18,743 nucleotides of DNA from a virus: the UHGV virus genome UHGV-0092215, one strand, 5' to 3'. Shown here piece after piece: positions 2,834 through 9,297 of this stretch (positions within the stretch are counted from its first letter, which is position 1; each line of letters begins with the position of its first letter). The position numbers were made by a program, and so were the translations under genes. The notes below the pieces were generated by a model, which worked only from the letters and a program-made list of their open reading frames with translations, had not been told where the DNA came from and did not search any database.

Positions 2834-3886
2834 TTATGTTTTGCTCAGTTTTTCCACCTCTTCGGTGGTCTGAATAAATCTGTCAGCTTCCAGTTCTACT
2901 CCGATCGCCCGACGGCCAAGTTCTATTGCAGCTTTCACAGTTGAACCAGAGCCCATAAAGAAATCGGCAACGATATCCCCCGGCCTGCTGCTGGCGCTAA
3001 TGATCTGCTTCAGCATGTCGGCGGGTTTTTCACATGGATGTTTGCCTGGATAAAACTGAACAGGCTTATGCGTCCATACGTCGGTATACGGAACAAGAGC
3101 GGAAACAGAGAAGCAGCGCCGAAGGATTTTGTATTCCTCCAGCAATTCTGAATACTTGCGGTTTAATGACTGGTAGGTAGCCACCAGCTGGTGGTGAGGA
3201 TGTTCAAGCTTTTGCTGAATATGTTTATCGATGGCGATCCGCGTGAACAGTTCCTGCAATTTTCGATAGTCCACTTCATTCGGTAGTTGCCATTGGCTTG
3301 CACCAAACCAGTGTGACGCCATGTTTTTCTTTCCGGTTGCCTCAGCTATTTCTTTCGAGCTGACACCCAGCGATTCACGGGCATTACGGAAGTAGTCAAT
3401 CAGTGGCGTCATAATGTGCTGCTTTAGCTCTGTGCTTTTCCTTTCGTAAACATCCTCTTTACCTGTGTACGGCCCAAGATAGTGCTCAGCAAACAAAATC
3501 CGTTCCGTAGATGGAAAGTACGCACGCAGGCTTTCTTTGTTACAACCATTCCAGCGGCCCGATGGTTTTGCCCAAATTATGTGATTCAAAACGTTGAACC
3601 GGGCACGCATCATAATCTCTATGTCTGAGGCCAGTCGGTGACCGCAAAACAGGTAAATGCTGCCAGCAGGTTTAAGTACGCGAGCATACTCAGCCAGGCA
3701 GCTATCAAGCCAGCGTAAGTAGTCCTCGTCCCCCTTCCATTGGTTGTCCCAGCCGTTAGGCTTCACTTTGAAGTACGGAGGATCCGTAACAATCAGATCA
3801 ATAGAGTTATCCGGGAGGGTGGCGACGTAATGCAGGCTATCAGCGTTGATTAACTCAACACTGTTTATTTTTACAGTATTTTTCAT
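2834..3886 (-). CDS. DNA methyltransferase, beta-class (DPPY motif before FxGxG; N6-adenine or N4-cytosine)
   Basis: 350 aa; LIVTDPPYF near the N-terminus and FFMGSGST near the C-terminus; no restriction-endonuclease-like partner visible; no obvious RBS before the ATG at 3884-3886. Confidence 0.85.
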   Translation of the reverse strand: MKNTVKINSVELINADSLHYVATLPDNSIDLIVTDPPYFKVKPNGWDNQWKGDEDYLRWLDSCLAEYARVLKPAGSIYLFCGHRLASDIEIMMRARFNVLNHIIWAKPSGRWNGCNKESLRAYFPSTERILFAEHYLGPYTGKEDVYERKSTELKQHIMTPLIDYFRNARESLGVSSKEIAEATGKKNMASHWFGASQWQLPNEVDYRKLQELFTRIAIDKHIQQKLEHPHHQLVATYQSLNRKYSELLEEYKILRRCFSVSALVPYTDVWTHKPVQFYPGKHPCEKPADMLKQIISASSRPGDIVADFFMGSGSTVKAAIELGRRAIGVELEADRFIQTTEEVEKLSKT

Positions 3887-4468: not shown

Positions 4469-5158
4469 TCACATTTCTGCCACTTTGAGGGCTTCTTCTT
4501 CCTCATAGTATTCCAGAGCCATGGCCAATGCAGATTCATCAAGCTGCGTAAAAGCGGTCTTTAACCCAGCCCAGTGCCCTGAATAGACACGCAACCATGT
4601 CGAACGGTCAACGCTAACCATGCGGGCCAACGCTGCACCAGCATAGTCTTTATAGGTTTCATTATTTCTGGTTGCGGCAATTTCCTGCCCTGCCAGCCAT
4701 ACCAGGCCAATCAGTTTCTTTACTACGCGATCCTGAAGGGAATTATCACCCAGGCATTTCTGATAAGTTTTCCAGACGTATTCACACATCATCACCTGGT
4801 GCTTATAGCTAAGGTCAAAACCGTAGCAGTACCGCAACCAGGCCTGCTGGTATCCACTAAGCGCGGACACTGCCCTACGCCACGGCGCGGACTCAAATTC
4901 CGCATCTTTTATCGGCGGCATTGGCCTGCGGCGGCTGCGTGTTTCCAGTACATACAGTGGCGCGGAAAGCGAGTTAACAAAGCGTGGCCCCTTCTCTCCT
5001 TCGAGTTCGACGAGATGAATTCCACGGCGCGGGGTGGCATTTTTGTCTGCTGGTGGGTGTTCACTGAAAGCCTCAAGCTGCCCTTTTGTTCCCCCGGAGA
5101 GGTCAGGTAGCGCGCGGCGCAATTCTATTCTTACAAAATTCAGGTCTTGTTGATTCAT
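4469..5158 (-). CDS. putative late-gene antiterminator (Q-like, QuuQ/phage-82 type)
   Basis: 229 aa from the ATG at 5156-5158 (the ORF-track GTG at 5179 directly follows the upstream TAA and is the alternative start); followed by promoter-like sequence, strong terminator and lysis genes; a DUF968-like gene sits upstream as in E. coli Qin ydfU-quuQ. Family is from position and recall. Confidence 0.5.
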   Translation of the reverse strand: MNQQDLNFVRIELRRALPDLSGGTKGQLEAFSEHPPADKNATPRRGIHLVELEGEKGPRFVNSLSAPLYVLETRSRRRPMPPIKDAEFESAPWRRAVSALSGYQQAWLRYCYGFDLSYKHQVMMCEYVWKTYQKCLGDNSLQDRVVKKLIGLVWLAGQEIAATRNNETYKDYAGAALARMVSVDRSTWLRVYSGHWAGLKTAFTQLDESALAMALEYYEEEEALKVAEM

Positions 5159-5179
5159 GCTTCTTTGCGCTCCATACAC

Positions 5180-6175
5180 TTAAGCTGTCGCAATTACGCC
5201 GATCGCCAGCGCCCGATCCATAAAACGCAGTAGCAGCTCAAGCTGCGTACCATGCTTCTGCTCGAATGCCGGTACATCGGCGTGCAGCTCGTCGTGACAC
5301 TCTCTGCACAGAGGGATCACGAATAGGTCATGGGCTTTTGTTGCTGTACCACCCATACCGTGCCCTACGATATGGTGCGGATCATCTGCTGGCCGTCGGC
5401 AACACTCACAGGGTTGTGTTTTAACCCAGCGGGTGTACGTCTCATTTACCCAGCGGCGACGTTTTGGCCTGAGCATGAAAGACTCTGGCGACTCCGGATC
5501 AACAGAAAGCGTGAGAATCTTTTTCGCCTTCTCCTGCACGAGGCTGGCTGCTGAAGCGGAAGGCACAATGTCACTTTCCCTCATGACTGAGCTGCTCTTC
5601 TCATCCGGAAGCCGTAACCCCTTATGCGCGACGCTTTCCGGTATAACATCAGCCAGGTCGTTCCTGACCATCCACCAGCACAGTTCCGGTAACGTCAGGA
5701 TATGCGACTCGGGAAAACCAGAATCGCGACGAATGACTTCCAGAATCCAGGATACCAGGTTTCCTGCCGCTATATCTGCAAGCTGCTCGGTATGTTGCCC
5801 GGACAGGATGTGATCGCAATGCCAGCACAGGCGAATGCTTCCTGGCTCGTGCCTCATAATTGTGAAGTTCTTGTCGTGCCACGATGAATGGGGCCACTGG
5901 CATTCAAACCGTGAACTCAGCCACTGCTCAAGGGAAGAAAGCCCACCGGCACGCTGTATAACCCGTTCATTCCCGAAGACCTGCCGCATTACCGGATCCT
6001 CCGCCAGCGGCTGAATGGCGGTGGGAACAGCCCCGGTACTGAATGACGCCATTTCTTCTGGTTCAGGCTCGAGCAGAACGCGACCGCGCATGAAGAGATG
6101 CATCAGTTCCGCTCCGGGACGAAACAACACAATCCCCATACGGGAGGCTATTTCAGGTGTGAGTAATGCCCTCAA
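5180..6175 (-). CDS. DUF968-like (YdfU-like) protein with C-terminal Cys/His-rich motif
   Basis: 331 aa ORF; C-terminus CECCRRPADDPHHIVGHGMGG...CRECHDELH looks like a zinc-binding or HNH-like module. The ORF-track start is TTG; an in-frame ATG at 6101-6103 has a GGAG RBS, so the true start is uncertain. Confidence 0.55.
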   Translation of the reverse strand: MRALLTPEIASRMGIVLFRPGAELMHLFMRGRVLLEPEPEEMASFSTGAVPTAIQPLAEDPVMRQVFGNERVIQRAGGLSSLEQWLSSRFECQWPHSSWHDKNFTIMRHEPGSIRLCWHCDHILSGQHTEQLADIAAGNLVSWILEVIRRDSGFPESHILTLPELCWWMVRNDLADVIPESVAHKGLRLPDEKSSSVMRESDIVPSASAASLVQEKAKKILTLSVDPESPESFMLRPKRRRWVNETYTRWVKTQPCECCRRPADDPHHIVGHGMGGTATKAHDLFVIPLCRECHDELHADVPAFEQKHGTQLELLLRFMDRALAIGVIATA

Positions 6176-7059
6176 TTGCCGCCACCAGCCAGTTCTTTAT
6201 CGTGGGTGAAACTCCCGTTCCAGGTCACCTTCATCGGAAGCTTCCCTTTCAGATAGTTTTTGTAGATCCAGGTGGCCCCTTCCCGAAGCAGAACCGGCTG
6301 ATAGGTGGTAAAGCTGACTGCTGAATTTGGAGAGACTTTGCTGCTTTTCTCAGTGAGGTATTTATCACGCGCGTATGACCGGACACGCCATTGTGCGCTG
6401 CGTCCTTCCGGATTGTCGTCATATAACCAGTTCATCGAAACAAGCCAGGCGCTAATTTTTGAGGTATTAACGCCATTCAGACGTTTACAGAACTGTACTG
6501 GGGAAAGCCCATCAGTGAAGAGGCTCTCGAGATGCTCGATATATTCGGCTTGCTGGTGGGTAAGCGCCTCAGCTTGCTGCTTTGCCTCCATGGCATCCGC
6601 CCACGCACGCGCCAGGGTTATTGGATCAGACATATTCGGCAGCATGACACCGTGGACCTCACGAAGATTGAAGTAATGATCTTCAAGCTGTTCAAAGAAG
6701 TCCCAGGCTAATTCGGTTTCAAGCATTTTTGCGTGGCGGGAGGCGCCGCGCTCAGTCCAGAGATAAAGGCTGCGAGCCTTTGATGATATTTGCACACTGC
6801 TGAAAGAGTTGCGCAAATTTTCGACTTCATCACCCTCAATTCGAAAGTAATGCTTACCCTCAACAAAACGCATTTTATTGCGGTTAAAGTTATTCGTGAT
6901 GTTTTGCGCTGTTGTACCGTAGCCGCTTGCTAAAGATTCCGTAGTCACTACGCGTTGATTGCGATAAGTGATCACCGGCACCGATGAGTGATTAACGGAA
7001 ATTACTGATGAAGTGCTATTTTTGGGCGTAGCAGTGCCCATAACATGATGATTGCTCAT
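6172..7059 (-). CDS. phage antirepressor-like protein (ORF6N-type N-terminal domain, KilA-C-like C-terminus)
   Basis: N-terminal region ...NITNNFNRNKMRFVEGKHYFRIEGDEVENL... matches the ORF6N pattern I recall; ATG at 7057-7059 with GGAGA RBS preferred over the ORF-track start at 7164, which would overlap rusA. Confidence 0.6.
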   Translation of the reverse strand: MSNHHVMGTATPKNSTSSVISVNHSSVPVITYRNQRVVTTESLASGYGTTAQNITNNFNRNKMRFVEGKHYFRIEGDEVENLRNSFSSVQISSKARSLYLWTERGASRHAKMLETELAWDFFEQLEDHYFNLREVHGVMLPNMSDPITLARAWADAMEAKQQAEALTHQQAEYIEHLESLFTDGLSPVQFCKRLNGVNTSKISAWLVSMNWLYDDNPEGRSAQWRVRSYARDKYLTEKSSKVSPNSAVSFTTYQPVLLREGATWIYKNYLKGKLPMKVTWNGSFTHDKELAGGGN

Positions 7060-7145
7060 ATTATCTCCATACTCTGATTGTTGCGAAGGGCCTGCACGCC
7101 CGTTTCGCTTGCACTTTCCGACATTACTGCCATATCGACCAATAT

Positions 7146-7544
7146 TCAACCCACAGCTGGACATATAACCACCTCTTTTTTATATGCCGTTATGGTTATC
7201 TCAACTTTTCCCTTCGGTACTATTGGCCCCCATTCCACCAGCATGCGCTTAATCTGGCTGTCGTCTTCCCAGACACCCGCATGCGTCAGCGCGTCAAACA
7301 GGGCTTTGTTGTAATTATCGATATCCCGGCGGCGCGCATCCGGCGGGTACAGAGTGATTTCTACCGCTGCCAGTTCAGTCGATGGCTTCGGGAGACGTCG
7401 TAATTGCTCAATGATCGCCACGCAGGCAGCGCTCTGGTATTTACGACCATTAGCGCTAATGAGGTGACGACCGGCCAGCGGCCCTTTGTTAGGGGCGCGC
7501 CAGTAAGCGTTTACGCTCGGAGGAAAAGGCAGGACCAGTTTCAC
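7146..7544 (-). CDS. rusA: crossover junction endodeoxyribonuclease RusA (Holliday junction resolvase)
   Basis: 132 aa; LPFPPSVNAYWR and RRRDIDNYNKALFDALTHAGVWEDDSQI match RusA; GTG start overlapping the upstream TGA (GTGA) with GGGGAGAGG RBS. Confidence 0.9.
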   Translation of the reverse strand: MKLVLPFPPSVNAYWRAPNKGPLAGRHLISANGRKYQSAACVAIIEQLRRLPKPSTELAAVEITLYPPDARRRDIDNYNKALFDALTHAGVWEDDSQIKRMLVEWGPIVPKGKVEITITAYKKEVVICPAVG

Positions 7545-8419
7545 GCGGCCTCTCCCCGCATATTGCGAACAAGTTCAGAAGCTGCAGTAATGATTTCGCT
7601 GGTGGCCGTTCGTTCCAGCCAGAGTTGACTGATGTTGGCTTTCAGCTTGTTCTGCTGAGCCTCACTCAATACGTCAACGCCTTCCACCTGGTTAAACACC
7701 AGACCAACCTCGAGAGGCCAGATACGTGACTCAGTTTCCGATGGTATGACTGGCTCCTGGGTTGCCCGCATTGCAATTGTCGGCTCTTTGCCAACAGCGA
7801 ATTGAGCCAGCGCCATAAATGCCCGACCTTTTGCCTCCAGTTCTGTGCGGTTGATATAGCTGAACCGCTCACCACGCCACGACTTATCGAATACAGCTAT
7901 GGCACCGGCAAAAAACGCACTGGTGGGCTTCTGTTTTTCGTCAGCAGGTACAAACCACACAGGCAGATCGAAGCCAATACGACCGCGAATAAACATGATG
8001 TGATCGGCGTCTTCCGGCCACCATGTTTCACTTGTCGCCGCTTTAATGAGGAACACGTAACGCCCACCCTTTTCACGCATCTCCATTGTGTGATCCATGA
8101 TGTGGGTCATGCCGGTGATCACCTGCTTCTCGTGGTACTGCGAACGGCTATACGGTGGGTTGCCATAGCCAGCGCCACCCAGTTCAGCCAGACGTTCAGA
8201 CCAGTCCTGCGTCAGCGCGTTATCTTCGGCGGTGTACCATGCCGGGAATTTCGCGTTGTCGTCGTCAGCAAACAAATCCAGAACTAATGGACCAAATAGC
8301 GCGTTGATCCCCCAAAAAAGCAGATCCGGTGTCCGCCACTGATCGCCAACTTCTTTCAATTCATGGGCTGGTTTGCTACGCAGTGCCGCCAGCGCCTGGC
8401 AATATTTATTGGTCATCAT
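7541..8419 (-). CDS. phage Dam-like DNA N6-adenine methyltransferase with about 110 aa C-terminal extension
   Basis: 292 aa; DLFADDDNAKFPAWYT followed by GNPPYS (motif I then NPPY), typical of the phage Dam family; start overlaps the upstream stop (ATGA). Confidence 0.8.
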   Translation of the reverse strand: MMTNKYCQALAALRSKPAHELKEVGDQWRTPDLLFWGINALFGPLVLDLFADDDNAKFPAWYTAEDNALTQDWSERLAELGGAGYGNPPYSRSQYHEKQVITGMTHIMDHTMEMREKGGRYVFLIKAATSETWWPEDADHIMFIRGRIGFDLPVWFVPADEKQKPTSAFFAGAIAVFDKSWRGERFSYINRTELEAKGRAFMALAQFAVGKEPTIAMRATQEPVIPSETESRIWPLEVGLVFNQVEGVDVLSEAQQNKLKANISQLWLERTATSEIITAASELVRNMRGEAA

Positions 8420-9297
8420 GAACGGAACCCCGAATTTTCTGGCAGTGAGTAATCAACACTCTGGAAGTTTGCGCGGCTGGCTGAGTTAGTCTCCCATTTG
8501 CCGTTAACGCGTTCAGGCCGGCCAGCACTGGACCATTTGGTCGCGCTTTGCAGGTAACCAGGGAAGTTTTTTGGAATGAACAGAGTTGCCGGGCGGAGGT
8601 ATTGCGCCTGCTCGCTATCACGCCAATCGGCATTTTTGTAATCCACTACCAGGCACAGGTCATCAACCGTGAATTGTTCCCGAAGACGGGCGCGAATATT
8701 CTCCAGCGACGTGCTGCACACCTGGTAGCGTGAGCCAGTAGTCTGGTTCAGGTAAGACAAAACCTGTCTGGCCTGATCAGTAATCACAACCTCAGGGTCT
8801 GGTTGCGCCGCAACCGGACAAGAGGGTTTTGAAGTTACTTGTGGATCTTGTTTTGATTTTACTGACGGATCCCCGCCAGATTCTGACGGGTCAAAACCGC
8901 CGTTTTTGACGGATTTCGACGGGTCAGTTTTTGAGGCGTCAAATTTTGATGCGTCAGATTTTGATGCGTCAGATTTTGATGTGTCAGAATCTGACAGTTG
9001 AGAAAATGCGGCAGCCTGAAGTTTCGCCACATTCAGGCGGTACACGTTCGAAGCATTACGGTTACCATTACGGCGCTGTGTGCGCGTGAGCCAGCCATCT
9101 TTTTCAAGCTTTGCGATTGCCGTTCTGATAGTGCTCGGCCCTGCGCCAAGCTGGCGAGCGATAGTTTCAATTGACGGCCAGCACACACCTTCATCGCTGC
9201 TGAAGTCAGCAAGACGAGCCATGATCGCAACACTGGACAACTTCATGCCCGACGATGCGCAACCATCCCATACGTAGCCGGTTAATTTAGTGCTCAT
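8416..9297 (-). CDS. putative replication initiation protein (lambda O-like; N-terminal HTH, conserved phage C-terminal domain)
   Basis: 293 aa; N-terminal helix-turn-helix-like segment (WPSIETIARQLGAGPSTIRTAIAKLEKDGWL); central low-complexity linker encoded by tandem DNA repeats; position downstream of cro and the CII-like gene. Confidence 0.65.
   Translation of the reverse strand: MSTKLTGYVWDGCASSGMKLSSVAIMARLADFSSDEGVCWPSIETIARQLGAGPSTIRTAIAKLEKDGWLTRTQRRNGNRNASNVYRLNVAKLQAAAFSQLSDSDTSKSDASKSDASKFDASKTDPSKSVKNGGFDPSESGGDPSVKSKQDPQVTSKPSCPVAAQPDPEVVITDQARQVLSYLNQTTGSRYQVCSTSLENIRARLREQFTVDDLCLVVDYKNADWRDSEQAQYLRPATLFIPKNFPGYLQSATKWSSAGRPERVNGKWETNSASRANFQSVDYSLPENSGFRS
8851..8997. repeat. 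iteron-like tandem repeats (about 15 bp unit TTTTGATGCGTCAGA) inside the replication initiator gene; putative origin
   Basis: Three adjacent near-identical 15-mers at 8944-8988 plus several degenerate TGACGG/CGTCA-containing copies upstream; encode the SDASK-type linker. Confidence 0.55.

Follow-up and report, generated by a model that had tools for sequence, protein, structure and literature searches.

A mobile three-helix tail on a phage Dam-type methyltransferase: a candidate docking module from a cassette that appears to have lost its C5-cytosine methyltransferase gene

Why should a small phage DNA methyltransferase carry a long C-terminal tail, and where does such a tail belong? The question is raised by a gene at positions 7541..8419 (minus strand) of the UHGV virus genome UHGV-0092215, an 18,743-nucleotide stretch of DNA that is referred to here as the window. 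The gene is a complete open reading frame (ORF) of 292 amino acids (aa) with an ATG start, and encodes a phage N6-adenine DNA methyltransferase domain followed by a linker and a C-terminal module. The original prediction had described a Dam-like enzyme with about 110 extra C-terminal residues. Our analysis indicates that the enzyme itself is routine and that the novelty lies in the nature of its unnamed, compact tail domain. The explanation that we favor, and which we hold to be moderately probable as a whole, brings together an active-looking Dam domain, a linker and a mobile module, the deletion of a neighboring C5-cytosine methyltransferase gene, and a role for the module as a docking domain.

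The catalytic Dam-type domain occupies aa 19-199 (7823..8365, minus strand), as defined by its match to PF05869 (E=5e-43; 147.1 bits against a cut-off of 28.1), while the equivalog model TIGR01712, 'phage N-6-adenine-methyltransferase', covers aa 16-197 (E=7e-61; 204.6 bits against a cut-off of 97.05). Because both profiles stop at aa 197-199, leaving the tail outside the Pfam and NCBIfam models of the family, and because orthologues of 203-217 aa are common, the extension first noticed in this gene is real, although at about 90 aa it is shorter than had been thought. The short orthologues are found in phages SfV, SfII, mEp460, cdtI and 720R4 and in the Stx2 phages; they align up to aa 203 and share 75-77% identity over aa 1-203, the 217-aa form of phage 720R4 being 77% identical over aa 2-203.

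The extension consists of two unlike parts. The first is a variable linker of 25 aa (aa 205-229; 7733..7807, minus strand), recognized by its divergence and by predicted local distance difference test (pLDDT) values below 50; among close homologues its mean pairwise divergence is 0.23, compared with 0.04-0.07 in the flanking domains, and in other homologues it is swapped for different Pro/Ala-rich stretches or for an insert of 147 aa. The second is a conserved C-terminal module of 63 aa (aa 230-292; 7544..7732, minus strand), delimited by alignments and by AlphaFold2 (AF2) modeling. Run on the module with an alignment of 25 sequences, AF2 predicts a three-helix bundle with a mean pLDDT of 86.9 and helices at aa 236-244, 253-268 and 273-291; the same three helices are recovered in a run on the full-length protein. 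The consensus, ESRIWPLEVGLVFNQVEGxDxLxxxQQNKLKANINQLWLERxxTSEIIT, contains the signature W-P-x-E-V ... Q-x-K-L-K-x-x-I-x-Q-L-W-L-E-R ... E-I-I, and the window protein has both W-P-x-E-V and the module signature (H/x)-I-N-(R/Q)-(M/L)-x-L-E.

No Pfam or NCBIfam family covers the module: with 25 diverse modules and Pfam E-values up to 5, no consistent family emerged, and PADLOC gave nothing for it beyond a full-length methyltransferase model. In PHROGs it matches phrog_16025, a family of 85 positions labeled 'DNA methyltransferase' (E=4e-11), as well as positions 270-343 of phrog_111 (E=3e-22). Searches of PDB and BFVD with the predicted module structure returned generic structural neighbors only. 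The net charge of the module is near zero or slightly negative, as would suit a protein-binding domain more than one that binds DNA non-specifically or mimics it.

The distribution of the module makes clear that it is by no means confined to this enzyme. A profile seeded with the window sequence and searched against 1.84 billion representative proteins identified 51 clusters, and a second search found at least 821 proteins. The module forms the very C-terminal end of all full-length matches inspected, and most of the matches are 'hypothetical proteins' of 85-86 aa from Citrobacter, Enterobacter, Klebsiella, Salmonella and E. coli. The module is, as judged from these comparisons, a separable, independent and mobile unit: orthologues 77% identical to the window protein end at aa 203-217 without it, the homologue of E. 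coli Nissle 1917 has 147 extra residues between it and the catalytic domain, and the module alone matches phrog_16025 and is predicted to fold confidently by itself. The Nissle homologue (L001:4001-5320, WP_001704140.1; our own locus numbers are preceded by L) is 439 aa long, and its insert has no Pfam match; comparable forms of 440-480 aa are encoded at L021, L022 and several viral loci. Such differences in the tail explain the length polymorphism (217, 292/293 and 439 aa) of proteins annotated as 'phage N-6-adenine-methyltransferases'.

Three candidate origins for parts of these tails were tried and rejected. The extension has no similarity to either of the genes flanking Dam in phage 720R4, which encode YfdN and a LexA-like protein, and is not a fusion with one of them. 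The Nissle insert likewise has no similarity to the ORF upstream of a stand-alone module. The idea that the tail of the short-form Dam proteins (...EKLVREMAA) is a module remnant was dropped; there is no nucleotide homology past the Dam domain, and for L030 the score fell in the shuffled range.

Where the module is joined to another protein, that protein is a DNA methyltransferase. Among 71 viral loci with the module at the end of an ORF, 29 encode it as a stand-alone protein and 42 as a fusion; all 42 fusion partners are DNA methyltransferases, one of them a truncated Dam, and they belong to four unrelated families (PF05869, MT-A70 (PF05063), PF01555 and a DPPH class-I group). The genes directly upstream of stand-alone modules form 18 clusters. 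Ten cluster representatives were scanned against Pfam and yielded a single methyltransferase (PF01555), the other scanned genes encoding DUF977, MmcB-like, DUF3850/ASCH, replication protein O or DUF1367 proteins or having no match; no methyltransferase motif IV was found in the other upstream-gene clusters. Taking families as units, the hypergeometric probability that all four fused families would be methyltransferases by chance is ~7e-4.

A second methyltransferase lies on the other side of the module. The Dam lineages that lack a C5 gene comprise the window's own, those of E. coli Nissle 1917 and ST64B, and a few genomes. In every context that we examined outside these lineages, a gene for a PF00145 C5-cytosine methyltransferase of 575-731 aa (627-731 aa in the non-Dam contexts) abuts the module ORF, and starts within a few bases of its stop codon, mostly overlapping it. 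The contexts include stand-alone modules (L004-L007, L128 and L131), fusions to the DPPH (L008 and L009) and MT-A70 (L010) enzymes, phage phiNP (L003), and a protein of 245 aa with an unassigned N-terminus before the module (L129 and L130). The same is seen when the search starts from the C5 enzyme: all 80 IMG/VR loci retrieved with it (60-95% identity) hold the module, and in 78 of the 78 that could be scored the module ORF ends between -3 and +18 nt from the C5 start. In data with one genome per species, 14 of the 18 loci that encode Dam with the module have the C5 gene next in line, against none of the five at which Dam lacks it. The two proteins are encoded separately, with in-frame module-C5 fusions at 0 of the 80 viral loci and in only two short Logan fragments that resemble single-base frameshifts. 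Since all the fusion partners are methyltransferases and the gene downstream encodes a C5 enzyme, the link of the module with DNA methylation extends to either side of it.

The C5 enzymes of this cassette, which form a widespread class of large prophage enzymes and were aligned from six loci (L034:5875-7881, L003:3878-5605, L004:6255-8330, L007:6258-8240, L008:5744-7627 and L010:5864-7906), carry motifs I, IV (SPDC), VI (ENV), VIII (RKR) and X (GNAVPPP). Between the motifs a 'P-x-x-T-[IV]-T-A-G-G' unit is repeated 5-7 times, the number differing from locus to locus by insertion or deletion of whole units. Multispecific C5 enzymes of Bacillus phages have tandem target-recognition domains, which these repeat units resemble. 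The most divergent module-C5 pair (L128:3386-8300, GCA_000406205.1) consists of proteins of 99 aa and 731 aa, and adjoins genes for Hha, a PLD-like protein and DndB; as it does not lie in a lambdoid early region, the cassette also exists outside prophage replication regions.

In the window itself no PF00145 ORF is present at or near the methyltransferase, and rusA is the next gene. Comparison with close relatives points to how this came about. Of the 120 closest protein clusters, 76 end in ...ARGLVGSMQGVTHA (293 aa) and 44 in ...AASELVRNMRGEAA (291-292 aa, the type of the window). In the contexts sampled, the 293-aa type has the gene order rep, Dam-module, C5 (668 aa), RusA, Ant, DUF968, Q, and the 292-aa type has the same order minus C5. 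An alignment by blastn of the window with a Citrobacter prophage of the first type (L034) gave two blocks of 91-93% identity that abut in the window at ~7552-7554 and lie ~2003 bp apart in the prophage (5867-7869), a distance that corresponds to the C5 ORF without the 12 nt at its 3' end. These last nucleotides appear to survive as a deletion scar at 7541..7556 (minus strand), in which the final codons of the window gene, E-A-A-stop, derive from the 3' end of the lost C5 gene: GAG GCC GCG TGA aligns in frame with GAG GTG GCA TGA. The scar stretch also carries the ribosome-binding region and the overlapping GTG start of rusA.

We infer, by parsimony rather than proof, that a clean in-frame deletion of ~2 kb removed the C5 gene in the lineage of the window. 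Deletion is preferred over insertion because the pairing of module and C5 gene occurs far outside the Dam lineage. Other C5-less junctions differ (...ARSMMEVSAA at L019; ...REVA at L022 and in ST64B), which argues that the C5 gene was lost more than once. On the evidence of these alignments, the window is a derivative, or degraded form, of the module-C5 cassette and not a member of it.

The enzyme to which the module remains attached looks active. A family alignment of 23 sequences, reaching down to 30% identity and including relatives from Acinetobacter, Vibrio and Staphylococcus phages, has invariant positions that are all present in the window protein: W28 and P31 of a DQWxTP motif, D48 of the LDLF stretch in the motif I region VLDLFAD (aa 46-52; 8264..8284, minus strand), D66-N67, the catalytic motif IV NPPY (aa 87-90; 8150..8161, minus strand; read from the sequence), and G146-R147. 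As NPPY, D48, DQWxTP and G146-R147 are invariant down to this level of identity, the gene is not a dead copy, and the NPPY motif that had been reported for it stands intact. The protein is predicted to be an active, orphan N6-adenine DNA methyltransferase of the PF05869 family.

The description of the enzyme as Dam-like is apt in one sense only. It belongs to the T1/HP1/VT2 Dam type, and a Pfam scan at E<=0.01 gave PF05869 alone, with no match to PF02086 (MethyltransfD12); as PF05869 is the sole Pfam match, the enzyme lies outside the family of EcoDam and T4 Dam. Dam domains of Stx2 phages are 76% identical to that of the window, and GATC is the reported target of M.EcoVT2Dam (PMC6602927); the window enzyme probably shares this specificity. 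The window holds 72 GATC sites against 67.6 +/- 7.6 expected, with no enrichment or clustering that would hint at replication control. Neither the whole protein nor the module profile, when searched by sequence against the PDB, had a relative of solved structure below E=0.3, and the full-length AF2 run, which had only close homologues in its alignment, gave a mean pLDDT of 41 for the catalytic domain.

The names given to relatives of this enzyme are sometimes misleading. RefSeq uses 'phosphoadenosine phosphosulfate reductase' for PF05869 Dam genes that lack such a domain (NC_004313 sb44 at L122, NC_003444, NC_009514, NC_021857 and NC_019716). True fusions of this reductase with Dam, of 666-669 aa, do exist (L027:2642-4642 and L029:2627-4636; phrog_33262), and the misnomer seems to have spread from them.

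Taken together, these observations suggest a model for the origin and role of the tail. A flexible linker of 25 aa joins the Dam domain to the 63-aa three-helix module, whose normal place is at the very end of an ORF that immediately precedes and overlaps a large C5 gene, either alone as a protein of 85 aa or behind an amino-methyltransferase. The in-frame loss of ~2 kb containing the C5 gene would have left the Dam-linker-module gene abutting rusA. We propose that the module acts as a protein-protein docking domain, through which phage methyltransferases may be tethered together or bound to a partner that they share; lacking a C5 partner encoded in cis, it would persist in the window as a still-constrained tail on Dam. 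Independent fusion to four methyltransferase families, together with adjacency to the C5 gene, is a classic signature of a functional, and probably physical, link between proteins.

A more specific version, which we put forward tentatively, is that the 63-aa module assembles a multi-enzyme 'methylation complex', in which adenine methyltransferases of four unrelated families would be brought together with the large and probably multispecific C5 enzyme, or with a common host target. Were this correct, the cassette would represent a previously unrecognized way for temperate enterobacterial phages to organize anti-restriction methylation, and the window would have retained its docking tail for a second, C5-independent partner. 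The model offers a testable hypothesis for the coordination of several protective DNA modifications by phages. It also singles out, as putative parts of methylation cassettes, the 85-aa 'hypothetical proteins' that number in the hundreds in Citrobacter, Enterobacter, Klebsiella, Salmonella and E. coli.

The most serious alternative, though we judge it improbable, is that the tail of the window protein is a functionless relic. The module would have served the neighboring C5 enzyme only, as an activator, chaperone or regulator, and would now be retained for no other reason than its reading frame, shared with Dam, and the ribosome-binding site and start context of rusA that lie within it. Such a reading draws on the constancy of the module-C5 linkage outside the C5-less Dam lineages, on the absence of the C5 gene from the window and on rates of substitution. 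Mean divergence among the 76 C5-bearing clusters is 0.014 in the module core and 0.046 in the Dam domain; among the 44 C5-less clusters it is 0.043 in the module core, 0.066 in the Dam domain and 0.234 in the linker. The relative rate of the module doubles where the C5 gene is missing, as a relic would have it; yet even there the module diverges five times less than the linker, and less than the Dam domain too, and every one of the 44 clusters is full length with no truncations. The ratio of non-synonymous to synonymous substitution rates (dN/dS) spans 0.05-0.33 in pairwise comparisons of the module core; like the divergence values, these are based on few sites and on loci that are not independent in phylogeny. 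Its highest values, 0.32-0.33, are those between the closest C5-plus and C5-less pairs, and are likewise in keeping with a relic; among the window, Nissle and L033, all C5-less, the ratio is 0.21-0.27, and between the window and L011, which are both C5-less and share the same scar, it is 0.06, with two non-synonymous and nine synonymous changes in 50 codons. Finally, the rusA start context needs the last few codons only. Constraint on the module is somewhat relaxed in the C5-less lineages, yet clearly present.

A less likely proposal is that the module counters type IV, methylation-dependent restriction (McrBC, McrA, Mrr), or regulates the timing of methyltransferase expression. Its production shortly ahead of the C5 enzyme would then spare phage DNA with freshly methylated cytosines from cleavage by such nucleases. 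In favor of this, a small protein is obligatorily translated just 5' of a C5 methyltransferase, enterobacterial hosts carry nucleases that depend on 5-methylcytosine (m5C), and persistence of the module without the C5 gene could suit a broader anti-defense role. The proposal does not account for the fact that all the fusion partners are DNA methyltransferases; moreover, the module is not strongly acidic, unlike DNA mimics, and nothing in Pfam, NCBIfam, PADLOC, PDB or BFVD related it to anti-restriction or controller (C) proteins already known.

A third alternative would see in the extension no separate unit but an inherent element of the methyltransferase family, serving for instance in target recognition or dimerization; it is largely refuted and retains very little probability. 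An extra DNA-recognition element would be plausible in view of the small catalytic core, and two full-length profiles include the extension, namely phrog_111 and the PADLOC MTase_II model PDLC03332, which spans aa 2-292 (E=3e-164). Against this, the extension is missing from PF05869, from TIGR01712, from the orthologues of 77% identity and from minimal family members of 141-163 aa; the module is found as a protein of its own and attached to members of three other methyltransferase families, and is set apart from the catalytic domain by a hypervariable linker of varying length. An artefact, in which a sequencing or assembly frameshift merged two genes, is excluded for practical purposes: stand-alone module ORFs exist and three database fragments (P0145, P0146 and P0159) are clearly frameshifted, but the ORF of 291-293 aa recurs in at least 120 independent 90% clusters, drawn from assemblies of NCBI, ENA, JGI and Logan, as well as in the isolated phages ST64B, phiNP and LLS.

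The window is a lambdoid prophage with genes for a cI-like repressor, cro-like and cII-like proteins, rep, the methyltransferase, rusA, an antirepressor, DUF968, Q, a DPPY methyltransferase, a holin and an endolysin. Upstream lies a replication initiator of 293 aa with HTH_36 and Phg_2220_C domains (8416..9297, minus strand), and downstream the RusA Holliday-junction resolvase of 132 aa (7146..7544, minus strand; PF05866, E=1e-15). The methyltransferase overlaps both, as originally reported: its ATG (8419-8417) overlaps the TGA of the initiator gene (8418-8416) in an ATGA at 8416-8419, and its TGA (7543-7541) overlaps the GTG of rusA (7544-7542) in a GTGA at 7541-7544. The gene lies in the early-right operon, within which it is predicted to be transcribed and translationally coupled. 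The suggested coupling to recombination functions is not a designed feature; related prophages have the 668-aa C5 gene in between, and contact with rusA is secondary, an accident of the ~2 kb deletion that removed it.

Several features of the neighborhood deserve mention. At 8912-8988, inside the initiator gene, a 15-bp tandem repeat GATTTTGATGCGTCA is present in 5.1 copies with 85% matches and encodes a SKSDASKSDASK peptide repeat; it looks like the origin iterons within the initiator gene of lambda, O. Between the initiator and Q (7146-9297 and 4469-9297) no gene for a helicase or helicase loader (lambda P, DnaC-like or DnaB-like) is present; in related cassette-bearing prophages (L004-L007 and L010) the initiator is followed by lambda P, DnaB or an IstB-like protein. 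At L015:6824-7462 and L019:4885-5511, a LexA-like N-terminal DNA-binding region and RusA occupy one ORF of 208-212 aa, which could represent a genuine fusion or an ORF that was called too long; the two are separate genes in phage 720R4.

The other methyltransferase of the window, a beta-class DPPY enzyme of 350 aa encoded between Q and the holin gene (2834..3886, minus strand; PF01555, E=5e-44), is of a different family from the PF05869 enzyme at 7541-8419, which bears out the claim of two unrelated adenine methyltransferases in one prophage. It is 78-83% identical to those of phiNP, SfV (orf48), mEp460, cdtI, phiP27 and Stx2c phages. Because most phages with this DPPY enzyme also have a PF05869 Dam, the set of two is a recurrent lambdoid feature. 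M.EcoGI and M.EcoGII are prophage-borne, non-specific adenine methyltransferases of 349 aa (PMC5778455), and are possible relatives of the late enzyme.

What is new here is the tail, the 85-aa ORFs and their linkage to large C5 enzymes; the gene itself was already catalogued. In the literature that we could cover, which was incomplete, nothing relevant was found on the module, on a small ORF 5' of phage C5 methyltransferases, or on the function of ST64B sb44. The uncharacterized Sb44 protein of Salmonella phage ST64B, also found in phage 118970_sal3 and represented in the cluster PDLC03332, is an orthologue of the window protein, to which it is 77.5% identical over aa 1-292. Dam domain, linker and module are arranged in it as in the window protein, and RusA follows directly; it differs in having a YfdN-like gene, not a replication gene, before it, and in the scar tail ...SSMRREVA. 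Its RefSeq name is the reductase misnomer described above.

The intact cassette that lies behind the window's form is represented by the mtase and met genes of Citrobacter phage phiNP and by Citrobacter prophages such as L034. Their Dam-linker-module proteins are 76-91% identical to that of the window and have the same replication gene before them, but a PF00145 C5 gene of 575-668 aa is kept between the module and the next gene. The short lambdoid PF05869 Dams of SfV, SfII, mEp460, cdtI, Stx2 and 720R4 resemble the window enzyme in their position in the early-right operon near rusA and in having the same late DPPY partner; at 203-217 aa, however, they are without the linker, the module or an adjacent C5 gene. 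M.EcoVT2Dam is a putative further member of this group.

EcoDam and T4 Dam (PF02086, alpha-class D12) share with the window enzyme a name, orphan status and, probably, a GATC product with N6-methyladenine. In contrast to them, the window enzyme is of another family, with a much smaller core in which motif I is followed by motif IV within ~40 residues. Known accessory parts of C5 systems are the controller (C) proteins and the N-terminal regulatory region of M.SsoII-type enzymes. Like these, the module is a small helical unit genetically tied to a C5 enzyme, in this case one with tandem repeats resembling target-recognition domains. It has no detectable sequence similarity or specific fold similarity to them, and differs in being made as the last part of the ORF that precedes the C5 gene, and in having been fused repeatedly to amino-methyltransferases.

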